Shown here: positions 7,101-43,900 of the stretch, piece by piece
Position numbering within the stretch: the first letter of the stretch is position 1
Layout: each line of letters starts with the position of its first letter
Assembly: GCA_963667035.1 (NCBI GenBank)
Contig: OY762964.1
Coordinates: 2,784,001 to 2,848,000 of the forward strand
Source of the DNA: Candidatus Cloacimonadales bacterium
GTDB lineage: Bacteria > Cloacimonadota > Cloacimonadia > Cloacimonadales > JAFGVF01
Length of the DNA stretch: 64,000 nucleotides
Reading direction: 5' to 3'
The notes under the pieces: model-generated
What the model was told of the DNA's origin: nothing
Seen by the model: only the letters and a program-made list of their open reading frames with translations
Database searches by the model: none
Position numbers and translations under genes: made by a program

Positions 7101-7424
7101 CGGTTTATAACTTCTTACCTTCCATATATAATAAGAGTAGAAGTCACTTTTTAACAGCTCATTAAAGGCTTCCTTACCCCCTCCTTCTAACTCAATATAA
7201 GTTTGACCGCTAGAACCTCCGAACATAGCAACTTGCCTGAAATCATCTAATCCCCAGTCGTATTTTACAGATAACTCTTTCGTCTTTTCGAATGCCTCTT
7301 CTCTGTTCATCGTAATATCAATATTAATAAATGACATTACTTTAGGGAAATAGTTAACAATAAAAAAAAGAGATGAGATTGAAATAAGTGTAAACACTAT
7401 CCAAAACCACATTTTCTTGAACAT
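4110..7424 (-). CDS. Large CPBP (Abi/CAAX) family intramembrane glutamic endopeptidase with duplicated extracytoplasmic domains
   Basis: EECLFR, FGMGH and HFVFD motifs; many TM helices; GGAGG SD upstream. Confidence 0.85.
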   Translation of the reverse strand: MFKKMWFWIVFTLISISSLFFIVNYFPKVMSFINIDITMNREEAFEKTKELSVKYDWGLDDFRQVAMFGGSSGQTYIELEGGGKEAFNELLKSDFYSYYIWKVRSYKPGEILESDTYFKPTGEPYGFDIKLPEDLELPNLTSEEALELAKTRAETDWGIDFTPYKLNDTKLVTTPKGRKDYTFIFERTDKKIAKAKFRINLSVRGNKFTGLYHSLKTPEAFQRRYSEMRSANNTIAGVGSVLMIILYGALGIVVGAFFLIKIKWLLWKRALFWGILVALLEFIASFNDLSLSWLWYQTSSSVNEHIFGYVSSSLVNFFSNTIILSASFMVAEGFTRKAFGKHTQLWKSWSPGVANSKKLLGNTIGGYLWVPISLTYILVFYMITTKYFGWWNSSSLSVDPNTLATSFPWLGSIARALHAGFWEECLFRAIPIAGAVLIGRKLGKEKLFFWIGMIVQVIIFGMGHANYAAQPSYARVIELILPSLVFAVAYVRFGLITGVMIHFVFDAVLMGLPIWMVESNEMIGNKVLFVLVMLFPILILVYRRVRERKCQDDLSGSYNEDWQPEIKKVSTISKSVVRNDNSKQLGKIIPILGIVGLILALLFFRVNYNASKLEITNEEAIAKATEFIESLGVEDLDQYEVMTEAQNGHKIVVSQIWHFLGEENFNNLSDNFVKCNAIAVRFAKFQGDLQERAEEFSVTYTKDGMLQNYRHDFHEESEGVNLTEPEATVLAKEQLEKIHQIDFNDLTLVKAIPSLRDNRTDWYFTYKDTVNYSLGDNYINYGIGFAGDELSTIYKGIKLPEKESLRFWNSYRTREAIFSILDIVTMLPYLGALIVIIIAWTKKLLNMKVFFILLILILIIFFIGFGLEYSNMKMGYSTSQPLGNQNVMSILVTILITVVVGFFVSIVMAYYAKDKNVSGTLLNSISIGFIAIGFYLLVMELLPKITASIPDSSVMVNSVPIIGAIIDSLKMFVRSLTLIMPVFIVIDKITDGFKKRNILMFIMLLLLTASLSMKSTFLYLDSTQIITWLVVTVVMTVIVHIFVKKLVATNRLSLIWIAGLYVTFKVLKMSMSDSFVGAKMYFLLGAIAVILATFGLSKLIDKSK

Positions 7425-7640
7425 TATACCTCCGATTAGTTTTGCTAGTCACATAAAACCATAAATAAACCTTTTCATGTTCATCTTTTCTGATTAAGTT
7501 TTTAGTAATCAAGCTTTTTCTACAAATCGTTAGCATTTTAACGAGGTGATGCTTGATTTTGCTACTTAGCTGTTAAGAAAAGACTTTGACAAAAGAACTA
7601 GTAGTTTACAATAGAAATTGAAACTCGTTCCGGAGGAAAA

Positions 7641-8312
7641 ATGAAACGTTTGTTAATGATTATAACAGTATTGTATTTAATGTTATCAGGCTGTACTGAA
7701 GACATAGATAAGATTGACTATACTATGCTTGAAGATGAAATATTCTTTCAACTTGATGAGATTTACAAGAATCCAGAATTGGAGAAAAATATTCCTAATG
7801 ATAATTTCGAACATCTCTTAAGTCAGAAAAGAGTAAAACTGTTTTCAAAAAGATTTGAAGCACTCCAAAAAGCAAACAACAAAATTGGTGCATTTTACGA
7901 GGAATACTACTACAATAGATTTGGTGAACTATTCGGAAATAACTATCCTTTAGAAAGCTATGAGCTGAAATCCTTTGTGAGACTTAGGGAATCAGAACTT
8001 GGTTTGGCTGAATATGATAATGTTACTGAAGCAGTAGTTGCAGAAGAAACAAAGAAAGACTTCGAGACAGGACATGCAGAGTATAGGCTCGAGACTAATG
8101 ATGAATATGTTGTTTACATGACTACTGACGATAATACTGTTTTTAGAGATGATGAAAACTATTATTATACCGGACACATATATTTTGGTGGAATACCTAA
8201 TCCGGTAGGCATGAGAGTAAGAATTCACTATAACAACATATCTGTGTATGACGAAGACAATGAAAAAGTAATCAAAGCATTATTAATAGAGCAACTTGAC
8301 CCTAAAAAATAG
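7641..8312 (+). CDS. Hypothetical lipoprotein
   Basis: Lipobox LSGC after a hydrophobic signal; GGAGG SD; TTGACA...TACAAT upstream (7586-7612). Confidence 0.75.
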   Translation: MKRLLMIITVLYLMLSGCTEDIDKIDYTMLEDEIFFQLDEIYKNPELEKNIPNDNFEHLLSQKRVKLFSKRFEALQKANNKIGAFYEEYYYNRFGELFGNNYPLESYELKSFVRLRESELGLAEYDNVTEAVVAEETKKDFETGHAEYRLETNDEYVVYMTTDDNTVFRDDENYYYTGHIYFGGIPNPVGMRVRIHYNNISVYDEDNEKVIKALLIEQLDPKK

Positions 8313-8334
8313 CTACAAGTCAATTAGGTTATTT

Positions 8335-9798
8335 TTACTCTTTAAAAACTGCTTTCAATTCAGGATTGTTAGGATCAATAGCCTTTGCTATTTTCCAATT
8401 ATCGTAGGCTTTTTTACTATCTCCCATTCTGTAGTATATGGAACCTAACTTGATATAGGCTAGAGCCATATTGGGTGCTAAACGGATTGCTGCCTTGCAC
8501 TCTAGAACAGCTTCTTCAAGCTTGCTTTGATAGTAGTATTTAGTTGCTTTAGTTATATGAATCAAAGCTTCATTTAAGTCCTTGTAATCCTTTAGCTCAA
8601 GCCGAACTGCATCAAGCTCTTTTGATTTTCTTAAATACTCATCCGTTGAAATGCCTGTAAACACTTTAAGTGTGTCTACGACATAAATAGTATCTTTGAT
8701 AATCTTCTCAACTTCAATATAAAGAGTGTCCATTGAAACCGGTTGCATTGACTCAACAACCTTCATAGGTTCTCTGATAATTTCTCTTTGAACTCTTGGA
8801 GGTATATGAGATGCAAGTTTATATTCCTCTGTTGTTGAATTACCGAGTTTAACTTCAAGTCCAATGAAGTGATTGCCATATGGAATCTCTAAATCAGAAA
8901 AGAGGGGGTAACTAAAGCCGTAATCAAGAGAAAGGTCTATTGATTTGGTATTTATCATTTCTCTATTGTTTAACGGATTTCTATACTTCTGAATATACTC
9001 TTTCCGTAGAACTAATAGACCTAATCCAAAACTCATTTCATTGTTATTTACACCACTTCTAAAAGCTAGATTTTCAGTAAGTCTATATTCTGTGCCTAAT
9101 GAATACGTAAAATCATTGAAGTCTTTTTCCTTGTAGCTGTTGTACGTTACATCAGAGGCTATTAACCATTGAGGAATAATGTTATACGTTGCACCTAATC
9201 CAAACTCTCTTGGCAGGGCATCATCTGCCTCTATTGCTAACTTTGTTTGAAATATATTCCTACTAACAAATCCCATTTGAAAACCGGTTGAGACCAGATA
9301 TGCTACCCCGAAGTCCATATCAATAGCGGATTTACTTGTGTCATTGTTCACAAAGAAAGGATCATTAGCTGTATATTCATTTGTTCCGTAGTCGATGTTA
9401 TATAGATTAAGTCCAAAACCAGCTTTCAGTTTGTCACCAAATAGATACGAACCAGCATGAAGGCCTACATGGATTTCGTTATATAAATCCGATTGGAAAA
9501 TAGATGAACTGAATGCCGTACTGAATTGATTGCCAATAGGGATTGTTAGAATAACAGCATTGTAATCCAAATTGTCGTTTTCGATACCATAAAGATATGC
9601 TCTATTATCTGTTAATAGCGAGAAGTCACTCAAATGAGCCAGTAAAGCAGGATTATAGACAGAAGCAGAACCATCATAGGATTGAGAGATTCCTGTTTTT
9701 CCCATAGAAAAATTTCTTATTCCGGCTTTCTCAAAAGTATAAGCTATTAGGTTAGAAATGATAAACAAAGCAGAAATTATTATTACTATTCTTTTCAT
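8335..9798 (-). CDS. PorV/PorP(SprF)-like outer-membrane beta-barrel with C-terminal stalk, coiled coil and TPR
   Basis: Signal peptide from ATG 9798 (GGGAGG SD); PorV-type N-terminus GIRNFSMG...ASVYNPALLA; amphipathic strands (LGTEY, FRSG, FGLGL, LDYGF); TPR AIRLAPNMALAYIKLGSIYYRMGD. Confidence 0.75.
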   Translation of the reverse strand: MKRIVIIISALFIISNLIAYTFEKAGIRNFSMGKTGISQSYDGSASVYNPALLAHLSDFSLLTDNRAYLYGIENDNLDYNAVILTIPIGNQFSTAFSSSIFQSDLYNEIHVGLHAGSYLFGDKLKAGFGLNLYNIDYGTNEYTANDPFFVNNDTSKSAIDMDFGVAYLVSTGFQMGFVSRNIFQTKLAIEADDALPREFGLGATYNIIPQWLIASDVTYNSYKEKDFNDFTYSLGTEYRLTENLAFRSGVNNNEMSFGLGLLVLRKEYIQKYRNPLNNREMINTKSIDLSLDYGFSYPLFSDLEIPYGNHFIGLEVKLGNSTTEEYKLASHIPPRVQREIIREPMKVVESMQPVSMDTLYIEVEKIIKDTIYVVDTLKVFTGISTDEYLRKSKELDAVRLELKDYKDLNEALIHITKATKYYYQSKLEEAVLECKAAIRLAPNMALAYIKLGSIYYRMGDSKKAYDNWKIAKAIDPNNPELKAVFKE

Positions 9799-9808
9799 CA
9801 CTTCCTCC

Positions 9809-12800
9809 CTACTTTGCAACCGTTATTGTGTTTAGATGAACTTTGCCATTAACTTTTACCTGACACAGATAGATTCCCGGAGAAACTAATTTCCCACTTT
9901 GATTTACTCCTTCCCAAACTGCTGATTTGCAGTTATAAGTCTGATTAGTTTCAGGATTTATATAATTGTATGTGCTACAGGATAACTTCTTAACCTTCTT
10001 ACCACTACGATTAAAAACTATACAATCAACCTTATCATTCTGAGAATCAACCGGGATTATTATGCGAGCCTGATCGTTGTAACCATCCCAATTAGGAGTT
10101 ATTATATCCGGTATTACTGTTACTCTATCAATATCAGTATTTTTAAAAATGTTTATCGAGAACTGAGCCTCAGCTCCTAATGGTTCAGGCTTTGATTTAT
10201 CATGGGCCGCAATATCAATACTTAATTGTTGTCCCTCATAGTAATAGTTATCAATTATATAAGTTAACAGATAGCCTAAAGAATCAGGATTTGAATTATA
10301 AGTAGAATTATCAAGATTAAAACTGTTTATGTCTCGGTTGTTAATTTTAAGACTAATCGAGGTTGAGTCTATTCCAGTTCCTTTATCTAGGATAGCTATT
10401 TCTAAAGACTCATTAATCTTAATTTCGCTTTCAGGATATTTAAGTATAAAATATGGTTCAAACTCATCCTCTATTAAGTTAAAACTATACTTATCTTCAA
10501 GAAGATTACCTATATTATCAGCAATAGAATATGAGACTTCAACGGTTTCAGCCCCATTCAAATCATCTGTAATATAGCGTATTTTACACCCATTGTCTGA
10601 TAACTCTGTATAAAAATCAAAAATCGGTGTACTATTGATGTTGAAGGAAATGTTGTTTGGATTAACACCGGAAAGGTCATCGTAAAAGTGGAGATATATA
10701 AGAGAGAAAGGATATCCAAACTCTCCTTCGGCAGGATTAGACATTACAAGATAAGGAGGATCAATATCATTGATTGTAGTAAAGTGGTAATTAATGCTAG
10801 CTTCATTATGATTTGAAGAGTTGTCTATAGCATAAATCTGAATATTGACTGTCTGATTATAATTGAATTTTGATTCCGGTGTGTAGAGAATGGAGTAACC
10901 TGTTGCTTCATTTTCTATAACTTCCTCAATCAGATAATCCTCAATCTGTTGATTATTGATATTAAATAGGATGGAGTTTGGATTTACTCCTGTTTCTGTA
11001 TCCATGATTCTGAAAGATATAGAAGTATCAATAGGTATTCCAATGCTTTGTTGAGCAGGATTAAAGCTTTCAAAATACGGTGGAATCATATCATCATCTG
11101 CAACTACAAAACTAAAATTATAATTAGAGAGTGAATTAGGTATCGGAGCAAGGTCGGAAACAGAAACAACTATTGTGACAGTTTCACCATATTCATACGG
11201 CTCATGATTCCATGTAATCCTATAATTACTTTCATTTTCTATTTGCTCTGTTACAGGTATAATCTCAACGTTATTCTCATGAATAACTAAAGAATTAATA
11301 TCCACACCTAATCCTGAATCATGAATCTCAAATGACACATTCTCTGTTGCCGGAACTCCAATATCATTATTCTCCGGATGTAAGTTGCTAAGAAACGGTG
11401 GTTCAATATCAGGTATTACTCTAAAAGAGTATGAAGTATCCATAGAATTGGGAACAGAAGCCAAGTCTTCACAAATAACTCTTACTGTAACCCATTGGTT
11501 GAAATCAAAATTGACACTTGATGTGTATAGAACATCGACTTGCTCTATGGTTTCATTAACTATTATGTACTCGGTAATATCATTTTCATTTATATATAAT
11601 CTAACGGATTTAGGATTGACACCGGTTAACTCGTCTTTCAAAGATAAGGTAATATCTGTATTAGGCAATACGTTTAACTCTTGGTCTGCCGGTGATGTTG
11701 AAGAAATGTATGGTGTTCCCAAATCTTGAATACAGGTAAAAGTGTATTCTTCCATATTCATAACATTTGCAGGTATATTATAATCTGATGCATTAATTTG
11801 TACTGTGACAATATTGCTATAATAGTTCTCAGGAGTATGAGAGATTCTATATCCATTTGTGATTTCATCTACCTTTGTTGAGTTCAATCCAATAATCTCT
11901 ACTCCATTAATTCTAATAGAGACGGTTTCTAAATCAATTCCTGAAAGAGTATCAATAATATCTACACTAAATGATGTGTTTTCAGGATTGTCCATACTGA
12001 ACTTCTCCGGATGATGATTCATAGTATAAGGAGGTTCCAGATCAGCTTCTACAGTAAATACGGAAAGAGTATCGATTGAATTTTTTAATGCAGACCTGTC
12101 TTCAATATAAAAGTGTATTAAATGTTCTCCAATCTCAAATATATTATCTGGCATTGGATTCCATGATAATCTTATTCCTTTATCACTCTGAATAGGTATT
12201 ATCTCAGTTTCATTGATAATTGAATTGTTATCAAGCTCTAGGATTAGGGAATCTATATTCAAGCCTGATTCATAATCGACAATCTCTATGGTGACGGGAT
12301 GATTTCTTGCAATTACTTCCTCATAGGTTGGATCAATATACAAAATAACTGGAGATGAAATATCCTCTAAACATTGAAAAGAGTAAGCAAAAGTACTCAT
12401 AGCATTCGGACTTTCAGCAAAATCAGAAGCACTAATTAAAACATTTACCGTTTGTTCATAAGCGAAGTTTGCTGAGGGATTGATTTCGATAAAGTAATCG
12501 TTAGGAGTTCCATAATAAGAAAATTCAGAATCATCCTGAGTATAAATATTCCCATCAATATTGACTTTGATAGTAGATAAATCTACTCCTTCACCTAAAT
12601 CTAAAATATGGAATGATATATTTGTATCTACACTTACGTCAGTATCTCCCGGAGCCGGATTCCATGTACTAGTATAAGGAGGATCCGTATCCTGACGAGT
12701 AAAAAAACGATAAGCTGTTGTAGGAATTGTGAAGCCATCATTATCATTCGCTACAACAGAGACATCAATAACTTGATTGTAACCAAAGAATTCTTCAGGA

Positions 12801-14470
12801 TTTATAGCAATTCTATAACTATTTAGAGCTCCTGAGTAAGTGAGATTAGGAGAGTTTATGTCATAGATTGTTCCTGCAATGACTACTCTTATTGAGTTGA
12901 TATCTATCTCTTCATCATCTGTTAATGAAAATGATACTGGCTGAGCAATATCTACATCACTAGCTCCATTTGATGGAGTTGGATTGCTAAAGTAGGGAAT
13001 CCCTCCAAGTATTGTTGTGGCACTTCCAAAGTTATTATATCCTTGAGGTGCAGCAATAGTGATGTCCATCTTGTCATCATTATTAAAGTCATGAACTACA
13101 AAATCAGAACCAAGCCTATCATCTACAGAGTTTCCAATTATCCTCATATCAGGATTACTATCTTCTATGTTAATGTTTATAGGAGGATTGTCTTGACCAT
13201 AAAGAATATCAACTTTACCACTTCCAATACCATTTATTGTTGTTGCCCCAGAAGTTCCGATTATTAAATCTTGAATTTGGTCTCCTGATAAGTCTTTAAT
13301 TAACAAAGTACTTCCAAAATTATCATCAGTTTCTTCTGCCGTTATAACCATATTGGCATTATTCTGATTCAATTCAATACTTGAGGGTAGAGAGTTACTA
13401 CCAAACAACAGATAGATTCTACCCCGTTCCAGATCTGTAGAAAAATCCGTGATTACTAAATCATCGTTGTTATCATGGTTATAATCTCCACAAGCCATTG
13501 AATTCCCAAAACGGGAATTCTGCTCTCGTGCCTTTATCGTTAGATTAACATAATTGGAATTACCAAGTGATATCTCTTGGTATGGCATACTGGTTCTACC
13601 ATAAACAACATATATAGCACCACTATTATTGTATATACCATTATCATAACCCGGAGCAGATACTAAAAGATCATTAAATAAATCATTGTTTATATTACCG
13701 CTAGAAAAAGAAAATGAGGAATTGTCATTAGAGTTTAAACCTAGAAATACAGTTATGTTATCCAACTCATTAATAGTACTTTGTTGAGGATAAGTGGAAT
13801 TGCTCCACAGAATATAAGTCTTTCCGCAATTATTTGCTACATTACTATCAGCAGTCGGAGCACCAATAATTATTTCGGATTGTGAGTCATTATTTATATC
13901 TGTTAGTATTAGACTTGAGCCAATTAAGTCATTTTGAGAAGAGCCGATAAAAGTTTGAGTTTCGTATTCAGCCAAATCAATAAGTGAAGGAAGTTGATTA
14001 CTTCCCTTTATAACATAGACTTTTCCAGTTTGGTCCAGTATATCAGTGCCTGCATAAGGTGCTCCAATAACCAGGTCTGAATATATATCCGAATCAATGA
14101 GGCCGGAATCTATTGATTTTCCCAATTGATCGTTGTTTTCTGCTCCGACTATAGTTACATCTGCATTTGAGATTGATAGATTAATGTATTCGTAATTAGG
14201 AATTGATTCATTACCAAAAAAAATGTAAACAGCACCGGCTGAATTCCTTCCTTGAAAATCAGAAAAAGGAGCAGAGCATATCAAGTCGCTTATTCCATCA
14301 CCATTAATATCACCACTACAAATATCGTAAGAAAAGAAATCAAAGGCTGTGTCTCCAGATACGCAATGGTTACCATTCCATTGTGATAAGTCATAATTTA
14401 CAAATGAATCCAAATCAAGTAAAGCTATGAATACGATAAATATAAGTGCGTAAACTTTTTTTGTGCTCAT
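9809..14470 (-). CDS. Large surface protein: FG-GAP (integrin-alpha-like) beta-propeller, about 8 tandem Ig-like repeats, type-B (CHU_C/gliding-motility-type) C-terminal sorting domain
   Basis: Seven FG...GDxNxDxxxDLxxxAP...GxVYxxxG repeats; ~110-aa repeats D.xPPY...P...ISFxIxD..xGV; C-terminus IITPNWDGYND...VFNRSGKKV...WEGVNQSGKLVSPGIY. Confidence 0.85.
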   Translation of the reverse strand: MSTKKVYALIFIVFIALLDLDSFVNYDLSQWNGNHCVSGDTAFDFFSYDICSGDINGDGISDLICSAPFSDFQGRNSAGAVYIFFGNESIPNYEYINLSISNADVTIVGAENNDQLGKSIDSGLIDSDIYSDLVIGAPYAGTDILDQTGKVYVIKGSNQLPSLIDLAEYETQTFIGSSQNDLIGSSLILTDINNDSQSEIIIGAPTADSNVANNCGKTYILWSNSTYPQQSTINELDNITVFLGLNSNDNSSFSFSSGNINNDLFNDLLVSAPGYDNGIYNNSGAIYVVYGRTSMPYQEISLGNSNYVNLTIKAREQNSRFGNSMACGDYNHDNNDDLVITDFSTDLERGRIYLLFGSNSLPSSIELNQNNANMVITAEETDDNFGSTLLIKDLSGDQIQDLIIGTSGATTINGIGSGKVDILYGQDNPPININIEDSNPDMRIIGNSVDDRLGSDFVVHDFNNDDKMDITIAAPQGYNNFGSATTILGGIPYFSNPTPSNGASDVDIAQPVSFSLTDDEEIDINSIRVVIAGTIYDINSPNLTYSGALNSYRIAINPEEFFGYNQVIDVSVVANDNDGFTIPTTAYRFFTRQDTDPPYTSTWNPAPGDTDVSVDTNISFHILDLGEGVDLSTIKVNIDGNIYTQDDSEFSYYGTPNDYFIEINPSANFAYEQTVNVLISASDFAESPNAMSTFAYSFQCLEDISSPVILYIDPTYEEVIARNHPVTIEIVDYESGLNIDSLILELDNNSIINETEIIPIQSDKGIRLSWNPMPDNIFEIGEHLIHFYIEDRSALKNSIDTLSVFTVEADLEPPYTMNHHPEKFSMDNPENTSFSVDIIDTLSGIDLETVSIRINGVEIIGLNSTKVDEITNGYRISHTPENYYSNIVTVQINASDYNIPANVMNMEEYTFTCIQDLGTPYISSTSPADQELNVLPNTDITLSLKDELTGVNPKSVRLYINENDITEYIIVNETIEQVDVLYTSSVNFDFNQWVTVRVICEDLASVPNSMDTSYSFRVIPDIEPPFLSNLHPENNDIGVPATENVSFEIHDSGLGVDINSLVIHENNVEIIPVTEQIENESNYRITWNHEPYEYGETVTIVVSVSDLAPIPNSLSNYNFSFVVADDDMIPPYFESFNPAQQSIGIPIDTSISFRIMDTETGVNPNSILFNINNQQIEDYLIEEVIENEATGYSILYTPESKFNYNQTVNIQIYAIDNSSNHNEASINYHFTTINDIDPPYLVMSNPAEGEFGYPFSLIYLHFYDDLSGVNPNNISFNINSTPIFDFYTELSDNGCKIRYITDDLNGAETVEVSYSIADNIGNLLEDKYSFNLIEDEFEPYFILKYPESEIKINESLEIAILDKGTGIDSTSISLKINNRDINSFNLDNSTYNSNPDSLGYLLTYIIDNYYYEGQQLSIDIAAHDKSKPEPLGAEAQFSINIFKNTDIDRVTVIPDIITPNWDGYNDQARIIIPVDSQNDKVDCIVFNRSGKKVKKLSCSTYNYINPETNQTYNCKSAVWEGVNQSGKLVSPGIYLCQVKVNGKVHLNTITVAK

Positions 14471-14595: not shown

Positions 14596-15975
14596 ATGAT
14601 AAGGAAAACTGTTATTTACTTGTTGATTATCTCTGTGCTCTGTTGTGTCGTTGAGTTATATTCAGAAACAACAAGCTCTTTAGCAGAGTTAAAAGCTGAA
14701 ACTGAACTTGCAAAACGCATTGAAGACCTAGTGAAACCATTTACTGAAAAAGTTATTGTTGGAGTTGATCTTGATTTAAGATATAATCTATTTGAGACTA
14801 ACACTTCAGATTTCAAGTTCGATCCCAATATGAGCCTACCCGGTTTACCGGTAGGTAAAACAGATAATAGAATAGTTGAGAATGATCTTGAAGATGTAGT
14901 ACCAACTGAAATATTAAGAAAGAAAATTAGTATTAAAGTTCCATTAGATACTTCCAAAGAAGTAATCGAATTTCTCAATCAAGAAATACATAATATTATT
15001 ACAATAGATGAGAATAAAGGGGATATATTGCAGATAACCCCTGAATCTAATCTAACCAAGTATATCCGTTCAAAGAATAACAGGTTACAGACTTACTTTT
15101 TTCTCACCTTAATTGCAGTTATGATTTTAATGCTGAATAATATACGTAGCGGTATGAGAATAATTGCCAAGTCAATGAGAAAAATCAAAATCACTAACCT
15201 TGAAGTTCTAAATAAATCAAAAACACCGGAGATAATTAATAATAGTACTTCTGAACAAACTCATCCCAGAATTCCTCTTGAACCTATAAAAGTAAAAGTT
15301 CTTCAAGATGAAGAAGAAGATTTGATGCCAACGAGATTCGATTTCTTAGAAGATCTTTCGGATGCTAACTTGTTAGAAGTTTTAAGAGAAGAGAATCCCG
15401 AGGATATAGCATTTATTGTTTCTCAAATCTCTCCAGAAAAAGCAGGAGCTGTTTTCCAGAATCTAAAAGAGAATAAAGAACAAGTAATAAATGCAATGTT
15501 AGAAAATCAATCAAAGCTGAAGCTAGACCTTAAAATCCTAGTTGTTAATTTATATAATAAGTATCTGGAAATTATGGAGAAAGAAGCAATTCAGTTAGAG
15601 GGTGTAGGTCTACTCGCAAAAATAATAAACAGTTCGGATTATGAGAGTTCTAACATTCTATATGAATCCATAAATAATCTTGATAAAGATAAGGCTAAAG
15701 AGATTGCGAAAAAGATATTCTTATTGGATGATGTCTTATTGCTGTCTAATATTCAAATTGAACAGATTTCTCTTGAATTTACTCATCTAGAGTTAGTTAA
15801 ATTCTTAGCCTGTGTGAATACAAGAATAAAGAACAAATTCTTCTCTCAACTTTCGGAAAGAGCAACAATGATTTTTAAAGAGGACATAGAATCTCTAGGT
15901 AAGCTTTCGGAAGGAGAAAAGAGAGTTATATTGAATCACTCATTGAGAAAAATTCGTAATATTCTAAATTTCTAA
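14596..15975 (+). CDS. FliF(RBM3-like ring domain)-TM-FliG(middle + C-terminal) fusion protein
   Basis: ATG 14596 with GGAGG SD; FliF-like ELAKRIEDLVKPF..VIVGVDLDL, LPGLP and IDENKGDILQI; TM; FliG-like RFDFLEDL...EENPEDIAFIVSQI, KKIFLLDD and SQLSERATMIFKEDIESLG. Confidence 0.75.
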   Translation: MIRKTVIYLLIISVLCCVVELYSETTSSLAELKAETELAKRIEDLVKPFTEKVIVGVDLDLRYNLFETNTSDFKFDPNMSLPGLPVGKTDNRIVENDLEDVVPTEILRKKISIKVPLDTSKEVIEFLNQEIHNIITIDENKGDILQITPESNLTKYIRSKNNRLQTYFFLTLIAVMILMLNNIRSGMRIIAKSMRKIKITNLEVLNKSKTPEIINNSTSEQTHPRIPLEPIKVKVLQDEEEDLMPTRFDFLEDLSDANLLEVLREENPEDIAFIVSQISPEKAGAVFQNLKENKEQVINAMLENQSKLKLDLKILVVNLYNKYLEIMEKEAIQLEGVGLLAKIINSSDYESSNILYESINNLDKDKAKEIAKKIFLLDDVLLLSNIQIEQISLEFTHLELVKFLACVNTRIKNKFFSQLSERATMIFKEDIESLGKLSEGEKRVILNHSLRKIRNILNF

Positions 15976-15985
15976 AAGGTTTTTT

Positions 15986-16723
15986 ATGAAAATAAGTACA
16001 CTATTAGGTATAGTTTTAAGTATAGTGATTATTGTTTTTGCCATTAATGCAAAAGGTAGTTTAGTAGAATACTTTGATCCAATAGCTTTGATGGTAACAT
16101 TAGGGGGAACTGTTTCAGCTCTTTTGGCAACTTACTCGTTTTCTAGCCTTAAAGATGCAATAGAATCGTTGAAAGTAGTTTATTTTACACCGCCCATACC
16201 GCATGACGATATGGTCGAGATAATGATTGGAGTGAGTAAGGATTCTCGTTCATTAAGTTTTATGGAAATTCAAAGCTATGAAGAAGTGCAAAATATCCCA
16301 TTTCTTAAAACAACTATTACAATGTTAGCTGATAATCTTCCCAAAGACAAAATTACTGATTTTCTTGAGTCTGAAAGTAGATCAATACTTAGAAGAAGAA
16401 TTCGTTCAGCTAAGATATTCGGAGTTGCTGGAAATCTGTCACCAATGTTTGGTATGATTGGTACAGTAATTGGACTAATAGCTATGCTTGGCAATATGAG
16501 TGATCCTTCTGTTGTCCCTAGAGCTATGAGTCTTGCTCTCGTTACAACTCTATATGGATTAATTCTATCTGTGATAATTTTTAGACCAATAGCAGGTAAG
16601 ATATCTTCAGGAGCAGAATATGACTATATCAACAGAGAAATCATTATTCAAGGTATCTCAGGAATTATTGAAAAACGCAACTCGGAGATAATTAAGACTG
16701 AGTTGACTAAAATTTATGCATAA
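15986..16723 (+). CDS. motA: Stator A subunit (MotA/PomA family)
   Basis: Four TMs; FDPIALMVTLGGT, PFLK, SPMFGMIGTVIGLIAML, AMSLALVTTLYG and PIAGKI. Confidence 0.9.
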   Translation: MKISTLLGIVLSIVIIVFAINAKGSLVEYFDPIALMVTLGGTVSALLATYSFSSLKDAIESLKVVYFTPPIPHDDMVEIMIGVSKDSRSLSFMEIQSYEEVQNIPFLKTTITMLADNLPKDKITDFLESESRSILRRRIRSAKIFGVAGNLSPMFGMIGTVIGLIAMLGNMSDPSVVPRAMSLALVTTLYGLILSVIIFRPIAGKISSGAEYDYINREIIIQGISGIIEKRNSEIIKTELTKIYA

Positions 16724-17372
16724 TAAAGACAACAATAAAGTTAATCAAGTTTTGTCTGATATCGAGGATAGCCTCATAAATACTCCAGACAATGATTTCT
16801 CAGGATTTTATTCAGCTTTAGTTCCTTATGCTGATATGATGACTTTACTACTCATTTTCTTCGTTTTCTATTTTGTCATAGGAGATACAGAAACAGGGTG
16901 GAAGGCTATTGCCGAGATACAAAAGAAGAAACTTAATAACAATATCCAATCAGAATCCATAGCAGAAACTGAGATGTATGAAGGTGATATTAGCGAAAAG
17001 GTAATATCAATACCGGGGAATATCCTCTTTGAATCTGGTGAGGCAAACCTTAGATGGTTGTCTCAAGATACACTTATTAAAATTGCTATGGATATAAAGA
17101 AGATCGTTAAAGACGATGATAGCTGGCAAATTCGTATAGAAGGACACACAGACAATGTTCCTATTGCCAATAATAAATATGCTTCAAACTGGGAGCTTTC
17201 TACAGCAAGAGCTTTGAGCATTGTGAAGTTTTTTATTAGAAATGGCTACTTTACTGCAGATCAACTACAGATTATGGGGTATGGAGAATTCAAACCTCTA
17301 GTACCAAATGATACAGAAGAGAATCGAAATAGAAACAGACGCGTTGAGATTAAAATCAGTCAGAAAAGATAG
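16716..17372 (+). CDS. motB: Stator B subunit (MotB/PomB family) with OmpA-like peptidoglycan-binding domain
   Basis: TM PYADMMTLLLIFFV with the ion-binding Asp; IEGHTDNVPI, SNWELSTARA, GYGEFKP and NRRVEI. Confidence 0.9.
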   Translation: MHNKDNNKVNQVLSDIEDSLINTPDNDFSGFYSALVPYADMMTLLLIFFVFYFVIGDTETGWKAIAEIQKKKLNNNIQSESIAETEMYEGDISEKVISIPGNILFESGEANLRWLSQDTLIKIAMDIKKIVKDDDSWQIRIEGHTDNVPIANNKYASNWELSTARALSIVKFFIRNGYFTADQLQIMGYGEFKPLVPNDTEENRNRNRRVEIKISQKR

Positions 17373-17380
17373 GAGGGATA

Positions 17381-18217
17381 TTGATAGATTATTATAGTTT
17401 TTGGGATATCAAAGAACCACCTTTTGAAGATAACAATGATCCTAAGTTTTTCTATAAAAGTATAGATCATTATGAAGCACTTGAAAGACTGAAGTATGTA
17501 ATTAACTCAAGAAGCATGAACATTGGACTGCTTAGTGGAGAAATAGGAACCGGAAAAACCATTACAAAAATGGTTTTGATTTCTGAACTTAAGAAACAAA
17601 ACCCACATAATGTTATTGTAAACATTAACTCATCCTTGTTCACTTTTAATGAGATTATTACAGAAATACTCTCTCAAATCATGGATATAGATCCAATAAA
17701 TTTACCAACTAAGAGATACTATTTGTTTAAGAAACTTGAAAGATATATTGAAGACGAGTTATTATACACTAAAGGATTAATTTACATATTTTTAGATGAA
17801 GCTCAGAAGATTACTCCTAAAGACTTGGATTTACTAAAAGATTTAACTAACATTAACTATAATTATTTCTGTCCTGTAAAGCTAATGCTTATTGGACAAC
17901 CGGCTATATTGAGAAATGTGAAAAAACTTCCACAAGTTGATCAAAGAATTGGTATAAGATTTCATCTAAACAATATGAATGAGGAAGATACTAATGCATA
18001 TATTGATTACAGGCTTAAAGTATCCGGATCTCAAAAAAAGATTTTTAGTGATAGTGCCCTATCTTTAGTTTATAAAAAAACTTCAGGAATTCCAAGAGAA
18101 ATTAACAGAGCATGCAAAATTGCAATGGATGTAGCCTCTGCTGAAAAAGAAAGCCTCATATCAGGAGAAGTTATGGAAATGGTTTTTAATGATTTATCTT
18201 ACCATGGAAGAGAATGA
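17381..18217 (+). CDS. ExeA/GspA-family AAA ATPase without a peptidoglycan-binding domain
   Basis: TTG start with AGGAGG SD; PF...DPKFFY...H.EAL; Walker A GEIGTGKT; Walker B FLDEAQ; LIGQP, QRI and GIPREIN. Confidence 0.88.
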   Translation: MIDYYSFWDIKEPPFEDNNDPKFFYKSIDHYEALERLKYVINSRSMNIGLLSGEIGTGKTITKMVLISELKKQNPHNVIVNINSSLFTFNEIITEILSQIMDIDPINLPTKRYYLFKKLERYIEDELLYTKGLIYIFLDEAQKITPKDLDLLKDLTNINYNYFCPVKLMLIGQPAILRNVKKLPQVDQRIGIRFHLNNMNEEDTNAYIDYRLKVSGSQKKIFSDSALSLVYKKTSGIPREINRACKIAMDVASAEKESLISGEVMEMVFNDLSYHGRE

Positions 18218-20775
18218 TAATGCCTAAGAAAAGACTCTCTATTTCAAATATTAGAAGTAAGAAAAGCGAGAATGAATCAACTGAAGTTATACTTCCTGAG
18301 TTAGAAGATAATCAGGCTGATTCCGACACTAAACTTGTTAAAGAAATTCCTAAATCAGCAAACCAAGGTGATGGGAATATCGATAATCCAAGAGTGAAAA
18401 CAGAAACTCAAGATGATCTAAAATCATTAAAGCATAATCCAACAGGATTTATCTCTAATCACAATGAGGAAAGCGAACCTTCGCTACTAGAATATCTTGA
18501 AGTTGGATACCGAAACAAATGGTTAATTCTAATCATTACTCTTTTGTGTATTATTGGGGCATATGTTTTACACATTAGAAAAGTTCCTTTATTTAGAACT
18601 AGAACTAAAATATTCATCCATGATGATTCAATGGAGCTGGAAGTAATTAATAATAAGCCATTCATAAAAGGGAAAATGGATGTTGCTACTTGGATGGAAA
18701 TACTAAAGACTAGAGATGTCTGTAAAAGAGTCTCTGCATACATGAATAATACTATATCTCCCCAAGAAGCTAAGTTGATGATTAACTGTACTAGCTCAAA
18801 AAATGAAGAAAACATCATTTCAATCACCTCAACTAATCCTAATCCAGTTATAGCTACGGACGTTGCTAATAATTTCTATCGTGCACTTAGAGATTATGAT
18901 ACGGAAGCCAACAAGCGTAACATTAACAAAACCATAGATTATCTTGAGCATCAACTAAGAGACAAAAATCACGAGCTTGATTCCTTAAACACAGCAGTAA
19001 AAGCTCTTTATGCTAATATAGATTTTAAAAACTACGGTGATAATTTGCATGAAAACTTAAAGCGTTTAAATGCTTTCAAACATAATTTAACAACTGTAGA
19101 AGTAGAGTTAGAAGCTGAGAATGCAAACATAAAAGTTTTGAACTCCAAGCTTAAAGAGGAAGATTCAACCTATATTACTGAAACAACTTATAGTGAACCA
19201 CTTAAAATTAAACTGATGAATCTTGAAGTTGATTTAGCTAGAGCTTTAACTACCTATGGGGAGAATCATCCAAAAGTTATAAGTCTACGTACTAACATAG
19301 CAAACATTAAGAAACTTATTTCAGATGGTGTTGAAGAAAGCATTCAAATGAGGAGTATTGGTCAAAATCCGTTAAAACAACAGATTCTAAAGGATCTCGT
19401 TGAATCTCAGACCAGGTCAATATCTTTAACCCAAAAACGTAATGCTTTGAGAAAAGTAATAAAAGAAATGGAGTTGTCTCCTAAAGATAACTCTATGCTG
19501 GTAAATAAGCAAAGAGAGAAAGATGCTTTAATACTTACCATCACTAACCTTCAAAACCAGATTAATAAAGTCAGATTGAATGCTAACATAGATTTTAACA
19601 GAATAGTTCAATTGGAAGAGGCAACTATTCCGCAGAAACCAATTGGTAAAAATCTACTCTTAATGCTTCTTAATGGATTAGGATTGGGTGTTGCTTTAAG
19701 TAGCATCTTAGTTTTTTTACTTACTAGGTTTGATAACAAGATTAATACTATTAATAAACTTCTTCATGTTTATCCGAACATTCCTATCATAGGTACAATA
19801 CCTAGGTTCAAGTTTAGTCCTATTAAGATTGATGCTCAAACTTCTAATCTAACAGAAGAGGAATTACAGAACAAGGATTTGGTAAACAGTGTTTTCAATG
19901 AAATTGCTTTAAATTTCCGATACCTGATTCTTAACAAAAGGAATAATGCTATTGCAGTGGTGAGTTCTTTAAAAGGCGAAGGCAAATCAACTATAACGAA
20001 CTATTTAGCAGTTGCTTTAGCTAATAATAATACTAAGACTCTTCTTGTTGATGCAGATTTCTATAATCCTCAGATATCTCGATATTACAGTAAAACTAAA
20101 GCATTCGGATTCTCCGAAGTTCTATCTGAACAAATACCATTGCATGAAGTGATAATAAATACTAAAATTGATAATCTTATGATACTGCCATCAGGCAAGT
20201 GTCCTCCAAGTGTTGGACATCTTTATCACAGTGACAGATTTAAAGAGATTATACAAGAAGTAAAGTCTGTTTGCGATATCATAATTATTGATACTCCTGC
20301 TTCAATGTATTTCCCGGAGACATCAGTACTTGTTAATGAGATGGATTGTGTTCTCCTAACTGCAAAGATGGGATTTACTACAACAATCAGTTGTAAAAAA
20401 TTACTAAAGAAGATACAAATCCTAGATACCAAAATTGGGGGAGTAATTGCAAATTCAATGTTAAAAGAGGTTTTCGATAAAACCTATAGTGATTACTACA
20501 ATTATAGTTATGAATATTACTCCCGATACCATAACTACACAAACAATCAAAAGCAGAATTCTTTAACAAAACATATACCTACAGATTTGTTTAAAGTAGT
20601 AAAAAAGAAGGATAAGTTGGAAAGAACATTCTTGCAGGAAGGTGAAATTCTAGACTATGAAGCTCAATCTGAAACAAATTTCGGAAGAATAAATAAAGAT
20701 AAAACCTTTGGGCTATTTCTAAAAAAATTAAAACGTTTCCTTGGTCTTGATGATGACTTTGATTTAGGAGAATAG
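18214..20775 (+). CDS. wzc: Wzc-like polysaccharide co-polymerase / BY-kinase
   Basis: Two TMs flanking a coiled-coil periplasmic domain (YGENHPKV); Walker A SSLKGEGKST; DAD; DTP; Tyr cluster YSDYYNYSYEYYSRY. Confidence 0.88.
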   Translation: MIMPKKRLSISNIRSKKSENESTEVILPELEDNQADSDTKLVKEIPKSANQGDGNIDNPRVKTETQDDLKSLKHNPTGFISNHNEESEPSLLEYLEVGYRNKWLILIITLLCIIGAYVLHIRKVPLFRTRTKIFIHDDSMELEVINNKPFIKGKMDVATWMEILKTRDVCKRVSAYMNNTISPQEAKLMINCTSSKNEENIISITSTNPNPVIATDVANNFYRALRDYDTEANKRNINKTIDYLEHQLRDKNHELDSLNTAVKALYANIDFKNYGDNLHENLKRLNAFKHNLTTVEVELEAENANIKVLNSKLKEEDSTYITETTYSEPLKIKLMNLEVDLARALTTYGENHPKVISLRTNIANIKKLISDGVEESIQMRSIGQNPLKQQILKDLVESQTRSISLTQKRNALRKVIKEMELSPKDNSMLVNKQREKDALILTITNLQNQINKVRLNANIDFNRIVQLEEATIPQKPIGKNLLLMLLNGLGLGVALSSILVFLLTRFDNKINTINKLLHVYPNIPIIGTIPRFKFSPIKIDAQTSNLTEEELQNKDLVNSVFNEIALNFRYLILNKRNNAIAVVSSLKGEGKSTITNYLAVALANNNTKTLLVDADFYNPQISRYYSKTKAFGFSEVLSEQIPLHEVIINTKIDNLMILPSGKCPPSVGHLYHSDRFKEIIQEVKSVCDIIIIDTPASMYFPETSVLVNEMDCVLLTAKMGFTTTISCKKLLKKIQILDTKIGGVIANSMLKEVFDKTYSDYYNYSYEYYSRYHNYTNNQKQNSLTKHIPTDLFKVVKKKDKLERTFLQEGEILDYEAQSETNFGRINKDKTFGLFLKKLKRFLGLDDDFDLGE

Positions 20776-21857
20776 TGAAGATAAAAAAAGATAGAATTAA
20801 GCGTAAGCATATATATGCTATAACATATCTTTTGATTATAATAGCTACAATCATTATACTTTTATTATTACCTAGGTCATGTAGCTATTCAGGTACTATT
20901 TATGCCGGAGTCGGAGGATGTGTTTATGATCCCGGTGTATATCCTATGTACAAAGGTATGACTTTATACGAGTTGATTCGTAAAGCAGATGGTATGAAAC
21001 CTAATGCTGACTTAGATCGCTTTAATCCGGATATGATTATTGAGCCATGGGAATCATATTGTATTCCCTGCAAAATAAAAAAAGACCCTCCTGTTAAACA
21101 AATTATTGCAGAAGTAGCTCCTTATGCCCCTAAACGAGAGCTTAATGATGTAGACCGCTTCACGATTATCTATGCAGGTTTACCAAGAACTTTTATACTT
21201 CTAGATGTTTATCCGAATTACGGACTCATATCAGCAACACATATTCCTTGGTTTACAGCAGTACATGATTTAGTCGGAAATGTAAAGACTCTCTATGAAA
21301 TGTATTTAATCGGAGGAACTGAAGCATTGGTAAGGTCAGTGTCTGATGTTACCCAGACAAATATTGACTACTACTTCGCTCAGGATAGACCTGCTTGGAT
21401 TAAATTTATTGATTATCTTGGTGGAGTAAAAGTAGACATTCCGGTTGAATTTGCAAAGCAATACAGAGTAAATAGTGGTATTCATATAATTGATGGATAC
21501 ACTTCTTGGTTCTATATTACCTTTATTTCCAAAGAAATGAGAAGAATAGATTATAAAACCGGCTCAATGAATAGAATCACTCGTCAAAAACTTTTTATGG
21601 AAGAGCTATATGCCAAATTTAAGAATCTGGATTTCTTTAGAAGTAGTCAGATTGGAAAATCCATATTAACAGATGCTGAAACGAATCTCTCTGCAGCTCA
21701 AGCCATAGAACTATCAAACAAAGTCAGGAAGATGTCTTCAAACAATCTAAAGCTTTTCACTTATCCGGGCGTTATCATTAATTATAATGGAGAGAACTAT
21801 TGGGAAGTTAATCCTATCAGATATAAAAATAAAATCTTTAATGAGATAAATAATTGA
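20775..21857 (+). CDS. Membrane-anchored SLBB + LCP (LytR-CpsA-Psr)-like protein, LCP motifs degenerate
   Basis: N-terminal TM; SLBB VGGCVYDPGVY...TLYELIRKADG; LCP-like IDYY, FIDYLGGVKVD, RITRQK and ETNLS. Confidence 0.75.
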   Translation: MKIKKDRIKRKHIYAITYLLIIIATIIILLLLPRSCSYSGTIYAGVGGCVYDPGVYPMYKGMTLYELIRKADGMKPNADLDRFNPDMIIEPWESYCIPCKIKKDPPVKQIIAEVAPYAPKRELNDVDRFTIIYAGLPRTFILLDVYPNYGLISATHIPWFTAVHDLVGNVKTLYEMYLIGGTEALVRSVSDVTQTNIDYYFAQDRPAWIKFIDYLGGVKVDIPVEFAKQYRVNSGIHIIDGYTSWFYITFISKEMRRIDYKTGSMNRITRQKLFMEELYAKFKNLDFFRSSQIGKSILTDAETNLSAAQAIELSNKVRKMSSNNLKLFTYPGVIINYNGENYWEVNPIRYKNKIFNEINN

Positions 21858-21864
21858 GGTATTC

Positions 21865-22587
21865 ATGCGTATTATTCTTGTTACTTTACTTTTTTTAACT
21901 ACATTTTCGGTATTTGCCCAACAAACTTATATTCCCCGTATGGCAAAAGATGACTTTTTTAACGGTGAAACTGATCTATCTAACATACCTGATTCGCTAT
22001 TGGTCAGTACAGAAGATGAATACATTCTTAGAAAAGGTGACAGAATATCAATTTATGTAATGGATCATTTAGAGTTCTCAAAGCCTCAAATAATGATATT
22101 ACCTGACGGAAGTATTGAGTATCCTTTGATAGGAACTCTGAGAGTTGCAGGACTTAACTCTGCTCAACTAAGGGCTATTATTGAAGAACGTTTACGTCCT
22201 TACGTGACTATACCCATTGTTACTATCTATATTGAAAAAATATTCGGAGAGAAACTCAATATAATTGGCTATGTTAATGGACCTGGAGAATATCAGCTTT
22301 ACGAACCTATAAGAATCACTGATGCTATTGCAATGGCAAAAGGTATTATAAACATTAGAGAAGTTAAAACTATAAGAGTTATTCGTAAAGATGGAGACGT
22401 GTTTAACGTAAGCCTTAAACATATATGGTTTAATGATGATGATGAGACAAACTACAGAGAAAATCTTCTTCTTAATCCGGGAGATACGCTTATTGTACCT
22501 CCTCCTCGAAGATTTAACTGGAGAATGTATACTGCAATAATTGCAACTCTATCACTTATTCTTCAGATATATATAGCTACTAACTAA
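21865..22587 (+). CDS. Wza/OPX-like polysaccharide export protein (Poly_export + SLBB)
   Basis: YILRKGDRISI, ILPDGSIEYPLIGTLRVAG, GYVNGPGEY, DAIAMAKG, LNPGDTLIVP and a C-terminal hydrophobic helix. Confidence 0.85.
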   Translation: MRIILVTLLFLTTFSVFAQQTYIPRMAKDDFFNGETDLSNIPDSLLVSTEDEYILRKGDRISIYVMDHLEFSKPQIMILPDGSIEYPLIGTLRVAGLNSAQLRAIIEERLRPYVTIPIVTIYIEKIFGEKLNIIGYVNGPGEYQLYEPIRITDAIAMAKGIINIREVKTIRVIRKDGDVFNVSLKHIWFNDDDETNYRENLLLNPGDTLIVPPPRRFNWRMYTAIIATLSLILQIYIATN

Positions 22588-37680: not shown

Positions 37681-37693
37681 TATCAAAGATAAT

Positions 37694-37730
37694 AAAAAAG
37701 AGCCGACATTTATGTTGGCTCTTTTCTTTT
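37694..37730 (+). terminator. Intrinsic terminator
   Basis: AAAAGAGCCGACAT-tt-ATGTTGGCTCTTTTCTTTT. Confidence 0.85.
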
Positions 37731-37859
37731 ATATTCTAGTTTAATTGGCATTTCCAATCAATTTTTACTCCAGATTCAAATATAACAATAAATAATCTAT
37801 TTCAACCATTATAAGTTATACCGGAAAGAGTTATAGTGCCTGTCTACAAAGTATTGACT

Positions 37860-38040
37860 AAAAATTATACACGTAATCTTAATAAATCTATAACTCTTTG
37901 CTTTATATGAAACTTATAACTTATTCACATAAGTGTGTATATTTAATACAACTTTATAACTACTTATTTTTAAATAAATTACTAGTAAAGTAAACTTAAT
38001 TAACAAGGGTTTTATGCGAGTTATCCACACTTGACAAAAC
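37860..38040. promoter_or_regulatory. DnaA-box cluster upstream of dnaA (oriC1 / dnaA autoregulation)
   Basis: TTATACACG 37865, TTATTCACA 37921, TGTGTATAT 37934, and perfect TTATCCACA 38021 abutting TTGACA 38031. Confidence 0.8.
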
Positions 38041-38124
38041 ATAATAAGAAGCAATTTTTGAGTCATCATGGCATTGATAATAATCCAATGAATTACAATA
38101 AATTTTTTACGGCGGTATCATTAA

Positions 38125-39459: not shown

Positions 39460-39494
39460 AGTCTTGCATAGCATGACTTTATTTTTTTGTCTAT

Positions 39495-39730
39495 TAAGTT
39501 ATCCACAAGCTAAGAATAATTAGTGTCAATAACTGTTTATAAGTGATGAATAGAAGTTGTTATCAAAATCTATGTGGATAGATTGTGTATAAAAGTTAAG
39601 TTATCCACTGACTACTCACATTTAAGATATTAATGCAACTAATGAAAAATAAAGCTTTACAAAATTCAAATGTGACTTTTCAACAAATTCACATACCCTA
39701 CTACTACTACTGTTTTTTTTATATTAATAG
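39495..39730. other. oriC unwinding region: DnaA boxes, DnaA-trios and AT-rich tract
   Basis: TTATCCACA 39499, TGTGGATAG 39573, TGTGTATAA 39584, TTATCCACT 39601; TTTTCAACA/AATTCACA-TACC-CTACTACTACTACT-GTTTTTTTTATATTAAT at 39677-39728. Confidence 0.9.
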
Positions 39731-39741
39731 GAGAATTAATA

Positions 39742-40986: not shown

Positions 40987-40988
40987 AG

Positions 40989-41783: not shown

Positions 41784-41796
41784 AACAGGATACAGA

Positions 41797-43559: not shown

Positions 43560-43572
43560 TTAAGGAGATATA

Positions 43573-43893: not shown

Positions 43894-43900
43894 GTGAAAA

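Follow-up and report, generated by a model that had tools for sequence, protein, structure and literature searches.

The 64,000-nucleotide stretch of DNA analyzed here (hereafter the window) derives from a Candidatus Cloacimonadales bacterium and covers positions 2,784,001 to 2,848,000 of contig OY762964.1. At 14596–15975 on the forward strand, it carries a gene for a protein of 459 amino acids in which a domain resembling ring-building motif 3 (RBM3) of FliF, a transmembrane helix, and the middle and C-terminal domains of FliG (together FliG_MC) are joined in a single chain. This protein, here called FliGx, is encoded by the first gene of a seven-gene operon (14596–22587) with gaps of 10 bases and overlaps of 1–8 bases. 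Genes for MotA- and MotB-type stator subunits come next, followed by four genes for exopolysaccharide export. Genes for a putative outer-membrane barrel and a giant surface protein are divergently transcribed upstream. FliG, FliF, and MotAB are textbook flagellar parts, and we know of no described case in which they work outside a flagellum. The analysis reported here indicates that FliGx is probably a one-gene rotor that, with its own MotA and MotB, drives something other than a flagellum.

The reading frame of FliGx begins with an ATG at 14596, with the sequence GGGAGG five bases before it, and ends with a stop codon at 15973–15975. The start methionine is common to the orthologues. All of the sequence strings quoted in a preliminary description of this DNA are present in the 459-residue translation (ELAKRIEDLVKPF, VGVDLDL, LPG, ILRKKISIKV, IDENKGDILQI, ENPE, IFLL, and SERATMIFKED). 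The protein starts with a hydrophobic segment (residues 1–21; 14596–14658) that is either a signal peptide or a first membrane anchor; Kyte-Doolittle windows exceed 1.6 at residues 1–7, and the segment ends in motifs of the ..AQ or ..SQ type in relatives. It is followed by the predicted periplasmic ring-building domain of the FliF RBM3 type (residues 25–158; 14668–15069) and a transmembrane helix (residues 164–183; 15085–15144; hydropathy windows at 165 and 168). A variable cytoplasmic linker (residues 184–247; 15145–15336) stands in place of the FliF tail and FliG_N. This linker is poorly conserved, gapped in an alignment of 33 sequences, and has a predicted local distance difference test score (pLDDT) below 50 in the full-length model. 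The FliG middle domain (residues 248–335; 15337–15600) and the FliG C-terminal domain (residues 357–459; 15664–15972) complete the chain. The flank on the C-side of the transmembrane helix has six K/R against one D/E and hence lies inside. Given this positive flank and the two hydrophobic segments, the RBM domain is expected on the periplasmic side and FliG_MC in the cytoplasm. Approximately 35 full-length FliGx clusters were recovered when 1.84 billion representatives were searched exhaustively with HMMER. A promoter and terminator scan was uninformative (34 sites against 39.8 expected).

Profile searches identify the C-terminal half of the protein as FliG. Pfam FliG_C (PF01706) matches residues 357–438 with an E value of 1.8e-13 (51.1 bits against a cut-off of 23.3), and FliG_M (PF14841) matches residues 258–296 with an E value of 3.5e-7 (30.8 bits against a cut-off of 25). 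The preliminary description had named MgtE_N as the competitor of FliG_C; this family reaches 17.9 bits, under its cut-off of 25.9, is located on the M region, and falls far below the 51.1 bits of FliG_C. FliG_N (PF14842), the domain with which FliG binds the C-terminal tail of FliF, has no match in FliGx at E ≤ 1. Likewise, the NCBIfam model TIGR00207 aligns at positions 104–301 of 338 (75.7 bits against a cut-off of 226.7), covering the M and C parts with the N domain absent. These results fit the architecture that had been proposed, in which FliG-N is replaced by covalent fusion. A profile built from four orthologues matched 12 sequences in the PDB, every one of them FliG, with Aquifex 3hjl (residues 114–320) as the best match (E 1.5e-20).

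Alignment to solved FliG also locates the functional motifs. ENPE falls on EHPQ (in the alignment to Aquifex and Thermotoga FliG) and IFLL on MFxF, as had been read from the letters, and SERA...KED falls on the torque helix (residues 414–436; 15835–15903). R422, E429, and D430 occupy the positions of the torque-helix arginine and acidic pair, which correspond to the E. coli FliG residues R281, D288, and D289 named in two papers (PMC12505986, PMC7564593). Residue tallies were made over 61 distinct members of the FliGx family. Arginine occupies the R281 position in 60 of them, an acidic residue (E or D) the D288 position likewise in 60, and D or E the D289 position in all 61, in agreement with the claim that the spacing of this triad is retained. 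EHPQ, which belongs to the FliM-binding motif of FliG, is degenerate by the same count (E 51/61, H 1/61, P 24/61, Q 3/61).

The periplasmic domain was compared mainly at the level of predicted structure. Residues 25–158 were taken from the window protein and 32 related loci for alignment and AlphaFold2 modelling. The resulting model has a pLDDT of 72.9 (83–89 in the core) and is ordered as helix, strand, insertion of approximately 40 residues, strand, helix, strand. When it was searched against the PDB with Foldseek, ranks 1–18 were occupied by FliF S-ring or RBM3 structures (E 2.8e-5 to 3.9e-3; template modelling scores 0.47–0.56). Below the FliF ranks came OsmC-like proteins, PrgK with an E value of 0.027, and, at rank 33, SpoIIIAG (E 0.13). 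On the basis of this model, the domain adopts an RBM fold that is nearest to FliF RBM3, as the preliminary description had suggested. With hhalign, profile alignment to the RBM3 of canonical FliF from flagellated Cloacimonadota was colinear throughout the domain (E 9.4e-4, probability 22%). Against two natural FliF-FliG fusions, it gave an E value of 4.8e-4 (probability 32%) and placed KGDILQI on RGDQVNV. Among look-alikes from the ESM Atlas, which serve as leads only, the top clusters carry YscJ_FliF_C (scores 0.89 and 0.85).

The periplasmic part comprises only about 135 residues and has no match to PF01514, the family of RBM1 and RBM2, the domains that accommodate the export gate in FliF; this bears out the predicted loss of RBM1 and RBM2. 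The insertion between the first two strands (residues 63–104; 14782–14907) lies at the position of the FliF beta-collar. This collar had been called very short; at approximately 40 residues, against approximately 60 in canonical FliF of the same phylum, it is better described as shorter. It contains the motif SLPGLPV(A/G)K(S/T), the residues of which are kept in 50–55 of the 61 family members. The motif is present in a sister family too.

The gene adjoining FliGx (15986–16723, forward strand) encodes a MotA/PomA-type stator A subunit of 245 amino acids (MotA_ExbB, E 6.8e-24). Residues 1–240 align end to end with residues 1–238 of PomA (8brd; E 1.1e-32), including the cytoplasmic domain, and the protein is a four-helix MotA with a cytoplasmic torque-generating domain. 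It scores below the NCBIfam equivalog cut-offs (148 bits against 394). The equivalent of PomA R88 (R90 in E. coli MotA), numbered by counting on this alignment, is kept in the window protein; the position is R in 28, K in three, H in two, and L in one of 34 distinct linked MotA sequences. The MotB-type stator B subunit (218 amino acids; 16716–17372, forward strand) is encoded by a gene that overlaps motA by 8 bases. It has a plug (MotB_plug, 29.8 bits), a transmembrane helix, and an OmpA-like peptidoglycan-binding domain (66.4 bits). Its channel aspartate, Asp40, lies on that helix in a PYADMMTLLL motif and is kept in 28 of 31 homologues. The order FliGx-MotA-MotB is found in all seven close loci. 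In 30 further FliGx loci, MotA comes next in every case and MotB was detected in 27; within a flank of 1.5 kb, the remaining three either end or show none.

The host genome was searched for the remainder of a flagellum. It is a single 3.10-Mb contig, 98% complete, in which FliGx is the sole match to FliG_C. No YscJ_FliF, FHIPEP, FliM, or FliMN_C was found in it by profile searches, each of which was positive in four of 14 control genomes. The deductions that the organism has no export gate (FHIPEP, YscJ_FliF) and no FliM are thereby corroborated, the latter also by the degenerate EHPQ position.

The distribution of the gene was surveyed in 232 genomes of Candidatus Cloacimonadota, the families of which are numbered here (f1, f3, f6, and so on). 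The family profile matched in 75 genomes, 49 with the fusion type, 20 with canonical-size FliG only, and six, all of family f14, with a variant of 670 residues. The 49 fusion genomes belong to f12 (34), f1 (nine), f6 (three), f17 (two), and f15 (one), with some genes cut by contig ends; FliGx is present in none of the 98 genomes of f3. FHIPEP (FlhA) is found in 24 of the 232 genomes, exactly in the families with canonical FliG. It is absent from 46 of the 49 fusion genomes. In the remaining three (G118, G119, G121), FliGx coexists with a full canonical set of FliF, FliG, and FlhA. The ratio of non-synonymous to synonymous substitution rates (dN/dS) of FliGx is 0.043–0.152 in 23 pairs with 75–97% amino-acid identity, so purifying selection acts on the gene. 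When the FliG_MC region was placed in a quick tree with 59 rows, the 17 fusion rows formed one group apart from canonical FliG (Shimodaira-Hasegawa-like approximate likelihood ratio support 97). Eight rows of the sister family form their own group (support 100), and the canonical FliG of Cloacimonadota falls among canonical FliGs.

In addition to the stator genes, FliGx is accompanied by genes for the outer membrane and cell surface. At 8335–9819 on the reverse strand lies a gene for a PorV/PorQ/PorP-like outer-membrane barrel with C-terminal TPR repeats (494 amino acids; NF033709 E 7.7e-8, TPR_2), hereafter the barrel-TPR protein. The adjacent gene (9809–14470, reverse strand), transcribed divergently from FliGx, encodes a surface protein of 1553 amino acids with FG-GAP and Big_5 domains by Pfam and a weak C-terminal domain similar to type B of T9SS, the type IX secretion system. 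In all seven close loci, the same divergent pair is found upstream of FliGx. In seven extended loci outside f1, a big Ig-repeat protein, barrel-TPR, FliGx, MotA, and MotB occur together in six. Of 25 loci outside f1, 23 have the barrel-TPR gene directly upstream of FliGx and co-directional with it. Its homologues occur in 41 of the 232 genomes. FliGx is present in 38 of these 41, and the remaining three genomes are incomplete and come from genera in which FliGx occurs.

The same association is found in the sister family, the members of which have approximately 505–540 amino acids and keep SLPGLPV together with a FliF-like RGDQIxV..PF. One member comes from Candidatus Electryonea clarkiae. Its contig carries, in order, the sister gene, MotA, MotB, a 1560-residue FG-GAP protein, and, after 228 bases, a barrel-TPR homologue (E 9.9e-33). 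The FG-GAP protein matches CHU_C above the cut-off (33.1 bits), and FHIPEP lies on another contig of that genome. No AAA_22, Wzc, LCP, or Wza homologue was found near this locus. The surface-protein and barrel-TPR genes are adjacent. The barrel-TPR and giant surface protein travel with the rotor gene, second phylum included.

The f14 variant is organized differently. In its representative locus (L063 of genome G203, 6675–11977, reverse strand), a 673-residue protein with a weak YscJ_FliF_C match, FliG_M, and FliG_C is followed by a 420-residue protein, a 229-residue TPR protein, MotA, and MotB. All six f14 genomes examined have a PF08345 match, which covers the C-terminal portion of the RBM3 model. 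These genomes are approximately 1.5–1.6 Mb in size and have neither FHIPEP (0/6) nor SprA_N (0/6). The TPR part of the window barrel-TPR protein aligns to the separate TPR protein of the variant (E 3e-6). The 420-residue protein matches no Pfam family, and BLASTP of the window barrel part against it gave no significant similarity (E 0.024). The window family differs from the variant in that barrel and TPR form one protein and a giant surface protein, whose tail resembles type B, is added. In addition, its rotor protein is shorter and has no PF08345 match, and exopolysaccharide-export genes are appended in the window lineage.

From these observations, we propose that FliGx is the single subunit of a minimal non-flagellar rotor turned by MotAB, and place the probability of this at roughly 65%. 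Ring formation, rotation, and output are inferred as follows. The RBM3 domains would build an inner-membrane ring, as they do in FliF, and FliG_MC would form a crown under the membrane. This crown would have one copy per ring subunit because the two domains are covalently joined. Peptidoglycan-anchored units of the MotA5B2 type, with ions flowing via MotB Asp40, would push the torque helix and turn the ring. Since FliM and FliN are absent and EHPQ is degenerate, the ring would turn in one direction only. The words rotor and non-switching, both used in the preliminary description, are kept here as inferences. The most speculative step is the output. The periplasmic collar, with its nearly invariant SLPGLPV.K(S/T) motif, may pass work to the PorV/PorP-like barrel, the TPR repeats of which would face the periplasm. 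Through this barrel, the motor might move, load, or deploy the giant FG-GAP/Ig adhesin with its T9SS type-B-like tail, in a manner perhaps comparable to GldLM acting on SprB/SprF. The scheme in full, with a MotAB-spun ring of fusion subunits whose collar drives the barrel-TPR protein and the giant type-B adhesin, is tentative and on balance rather doubtful.

A number of observations weigh against the proposed rotor. The likeness of the N-domain to FliF is weak at the sequence level, and YscJ_FliF_C (PF08345) has no match in FliGx at E ≤ 1. The collar insertion was modelled at low confidence (pLDDT 45–57), and the full-length AlphaFold2 model, built from four sequences, was poor (pLDDT 51) and served for secondary structure only. 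The ring and its rotation are predictions, and no scaffold is known that would hold together a ring of FliG_MC in the absence of FliG_N, FliM, and FliN. Charges at the interface between rotor and stator are altered as well. PomA E96 (E. coli MotA E98), which pairs with FliG R281, is replaced by Gln in the window MotA; every one of the 34 linked MotA sequences has Q, M, L, I, or V there, and none an acidic residue. According to the preliminary description, the equivalents of K264 and R297 in FliG look lost. In the family both are mostly lost: the R297 equivalent is basic in just two of the 61 members, and that of K264, which is Ala in the window protein, is Lys in 26 of 61. As a result of these changes, the rotor-stator interface differs from that of the flagellum. 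The outward partners are also less firmly assigned. Matches of barrel-TPR proteins to PorV_fam (E 7.7e-8 to 2.1e-20) and PorP_fam (E 4e-6 to 8e-5) are all under curated cut-offs, and the homologue is absent at E ≤ 1e-30 from 11 of the 49 FliGx genomes. The tail of the 1553-residue protein scores 24.8 bits for CHU_C (cut-off 27) and 19.5 bits for TIGR04131 (E 8.4e-4, cut-off 35). The output itself is assigned solely from gene neighborhood.

Some of these points would be accommodated if FliGx transmitted force and formed no rotating ring. One or a few copies would then sit on MotAB via FliG_C as an arm similar to TonB or TolA. The stator would pull the periplasmic domain and thereby act on the barrel-TPR protein so that the surface protein is gated, released, or anchored, and the RBM fold would merely be a small oligomerization or contact module. 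This arrangement, which we consider unlikely, would suit the lack of FliG_N, FliM, and FliN to scaffold a C-ring, the shortened collar, and the only partial retention of MotA-FliG charge pairs. It would also have precedents: ExbBD, TolQR, and GldLM are non-flagellar 5:2 motors that work through periplasmic arms and not through large rings. For GldLM, see PMC8986121. However, the domain finds its best structural matches in the FliF S-ring, which forms rings, and other RBM proteins follow only at a clear distance. Furthermore, FliG_M and FliG_C are both kept and conserved; in the flagellar ring, stacking of these two domains chains the FliG subunits together.

A different role is suggested by the remainder of the operon. 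On the forward strand at 17381–22587, Pfam and NCBIfam matches identify four tightly packed genes: an AAA_22 ATPase (pepcterm_ATPase-like), a Wzz protein with tyrosine kinase, a protein with SLBB and LCP domains, and a Wza-like exporter. MotAB and FliGx could power or gate this Wzc/LCP/Wza polysaccharide export set, a possibility encouraged by the tight packing of the seven-gene operon and its retention in seven of seven close f1 loci. We regard it as distinctly improbable. All seven extended loci of other families, as well as Candidatus Electryonea, keep FliGx-MotA-MotB with the barrel-TPR gene, the surface protein, or both, and have no export homologues nearby. Confinement of the export genes to f1 means that any coupling to the motor is at most lineage-specific. 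Exopolysaccharide export was also rejected as the ancestral job of the motor, given the absence of these genes from the seven extended loci outside f1. The AAA_22 gene (17381–18217, forward strand) encodes an ExeA/GspA-like ATPase with a match to the XrtA/PEP-CTERM-associated ATPase family (E 3.4e-41, under the cut-off); its neighbors on either side, motB and the Wzc-like gene, are spaced 4–8 bases from it.

It is scarcely credible that FliGx is an evolutionary leftover of a lost flagellum, kept with motAB as a non-functional protein or mere membrane anchor: although part of the phylum is flagellated (FHIPEP in 24/232) and flagella have therefore been lost within it, the reading frames remain intact, dN/dS is 0.04–0.15 in the 23 pairs, functional residues are conserved, the gene is fixed beside its partners in five families as well as in a second phylum, and it coexists with canonical FliF/FliG/FlhA in three genomes and forms a clade separate from the canonical FliG of the phylum.

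The proposed rotor can be compared with several known systems. It resembles the flagellar motor core in its predicted RBM3 fold, its FliG_M and FliG_C domains, and its torque-helix arginine and acidic pair. The linked stator is likewise similar, with a MotA that matches PomA and has the R88 equivalent, and a MotB with plug, aspartate, and OmpA-like domain. In contrast to the flagellar core, FliGx is one polypeptide without RBM1, RBM2, or FliG_N and with a degenerate EHPQ, and its genome is without FliM, FliN, FlhA, and canonical FliF. Further differences are the non-acidic equivalent of MotA E96/E98, the shorter collar with its new conserved motif, and neighbors that are outer-membrane and surface genes instead of rod or hook genes. 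A counterpart to the covalent joint is provided by engineered FliF-FliG fusions, for example from Vibrio (PDB 8z4d/8z4g), which assemble MS-rings (PMC11481574), and 8z4d is among the top Foldseek matches of the FliGx N-domain. These are laboratory joins of two full-length proteins within a complete flagellum, whereas FliGx is natural and lacks RBM1/2, FliG_N, and the flagellum. SpoIIIAG and the type III secretion proteins PrgK/EscJ share the alpha-beta-beta-alpha-beta ring-building fold, and SpoIIIAG too has an insertion between strands.

For the output, the nearest counterpart is GldLM/PorLM with SprB/SprF, of T9SS and gliding in Bacteroidota. The genes for the SprB adhesin and the SprF barrel are adjacent (PMC9143113). 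If our assignments are correct, both systems would combine an ion-driven 5:2 motor of the inner membrane, a PorP/PorV barrel, and a giant type-B adhesin. However, FliGx shares no homology with GldL or GldM, its stator belongs to the MotAB type and would act on a cytoplasmic FliG domain, and the window partners are assigned to T9SS by scores that fall short of curated cut-offs. Cloacimonadota may have a T9SS (PMC11285876), and SprA_N was found in 205 of the 232 genomes of the phylum. The possibility that FliGx is a general T9SS motor replacing GldLM was considered and rejected: SprA is widespread, including in f3, where 89 of 98 genomes have it and none has FliGx. GldM and GldL were not found in the window genome and GldM_1st was above its cut-off in 0 of 232 genomes, in searches for which no positive control matched, so that absence is unproven. 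The window genome itself has a SprA-like gene (2063-residue frame) and 129 matches to Por_Secre_tail. A full-text search of the literature returned no description of such a fusion protein or operon. PMC12505986, which classifies MotAB homologues, contains neither "non-flagellated" nor "Bacteroid", and its sole mention of FliG concerns the rotor-stator charge pairs.

If FliGx is indeed such a subunit, it would represent a natural minimal rotor with one rotor gene and two stator genes. It would then serve to test what torque generation and ring assembly need when FliG_N, FliM, and FliN are absent, the ratio of FliF to FliG is fixed at 1:1, and charges are altered. It would imply that torque can be generated without a type III export gate, rod, hook, or C-ring. 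It would also bear directly on the long-standing question of whether the motor of the flagellum and its export apparatus can be separated as modules, and on the order in which they originated, with the FliGx motor either descending from the flagellum by reduction or being related to a rotor that preceded it. For the uncultured anaerobes concerned (Cloacimonadota and Candidatus Electryonea), the system would be a candidate new envelope-spanning machine tied to surface adhesins and, in the window lineage, to exopolysaccharide export. With the output proposed above, it would add a third type to the surface machines driven by rotation and combine features of the flagellar motor with those of the gliding/T9SS apparatus.

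Other arrangements of related genes were noted during the survey. One genome (G144) has two tandem cassettes of FliGx, MotA, MotB, and a YfiO/BamD-like TPR gene approximately 3 kb apart (L052, 7586–16069); they have no barrel-TPR gene upstream, and a sigma-70 family gene lies divergently upstream. Three f12 loci (L047, L048, L051) have a same-strand open reading frame of approximately 300 residues directly after MotB; in L048, the only one scanned, it carries an MscS-type mechanosensitive channel domain. In G119, a canonical FliG of 346 residues is followed by a 168-residue open reading frame with a FliG_C piece and then a FliG_M piece (L064, 7904–9464). This pair adjoins a prolyl oligopeptidase gene, and fliF is elsewhere in the genome. 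In a Deltaproteobacteria metagenome-assembled genome (L015), the sizes and order of the open reading frames, judged by size only, are those of an ordinary fliF-fliG-fliH-fliI operon. Natural fusions of other kinds occur in metagenomes. Two full-length FliF-FliG proteins (P0100 and P0105; 787 and 774 amino acids) nest among canonical FliG in the quick tree. FliM-FliG proteins of 996, 622, and 589 amino acids and FliN-FliG proteins of 665 and 932 amino acids are among P0047, P0079, P0081, P0095, and P0148. P0045, P0046, and P0047 carry two FliG_C stretches each.

The window contains further genes of interest away from the operon. A protein of 2376 amino acids (30550–37680, forward strand) combines PPC, MAM, and Ig-like domains with a T9SS sorting domain of type A (Por_Secre_tail, above the cut-off). 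On the reverse strand, 1517–3631 encodes a fusion of a CHASE2 sensor with an adenylate/guanylate cyclase domain; an M48 peptidase with SH3_3 follows at 282–1520. Finally, dnaA is located at 38125–39459, where GC skew turns from approximately 0 to +0.2, making this part of the window (36000–44000) probably the region of the replication origin.

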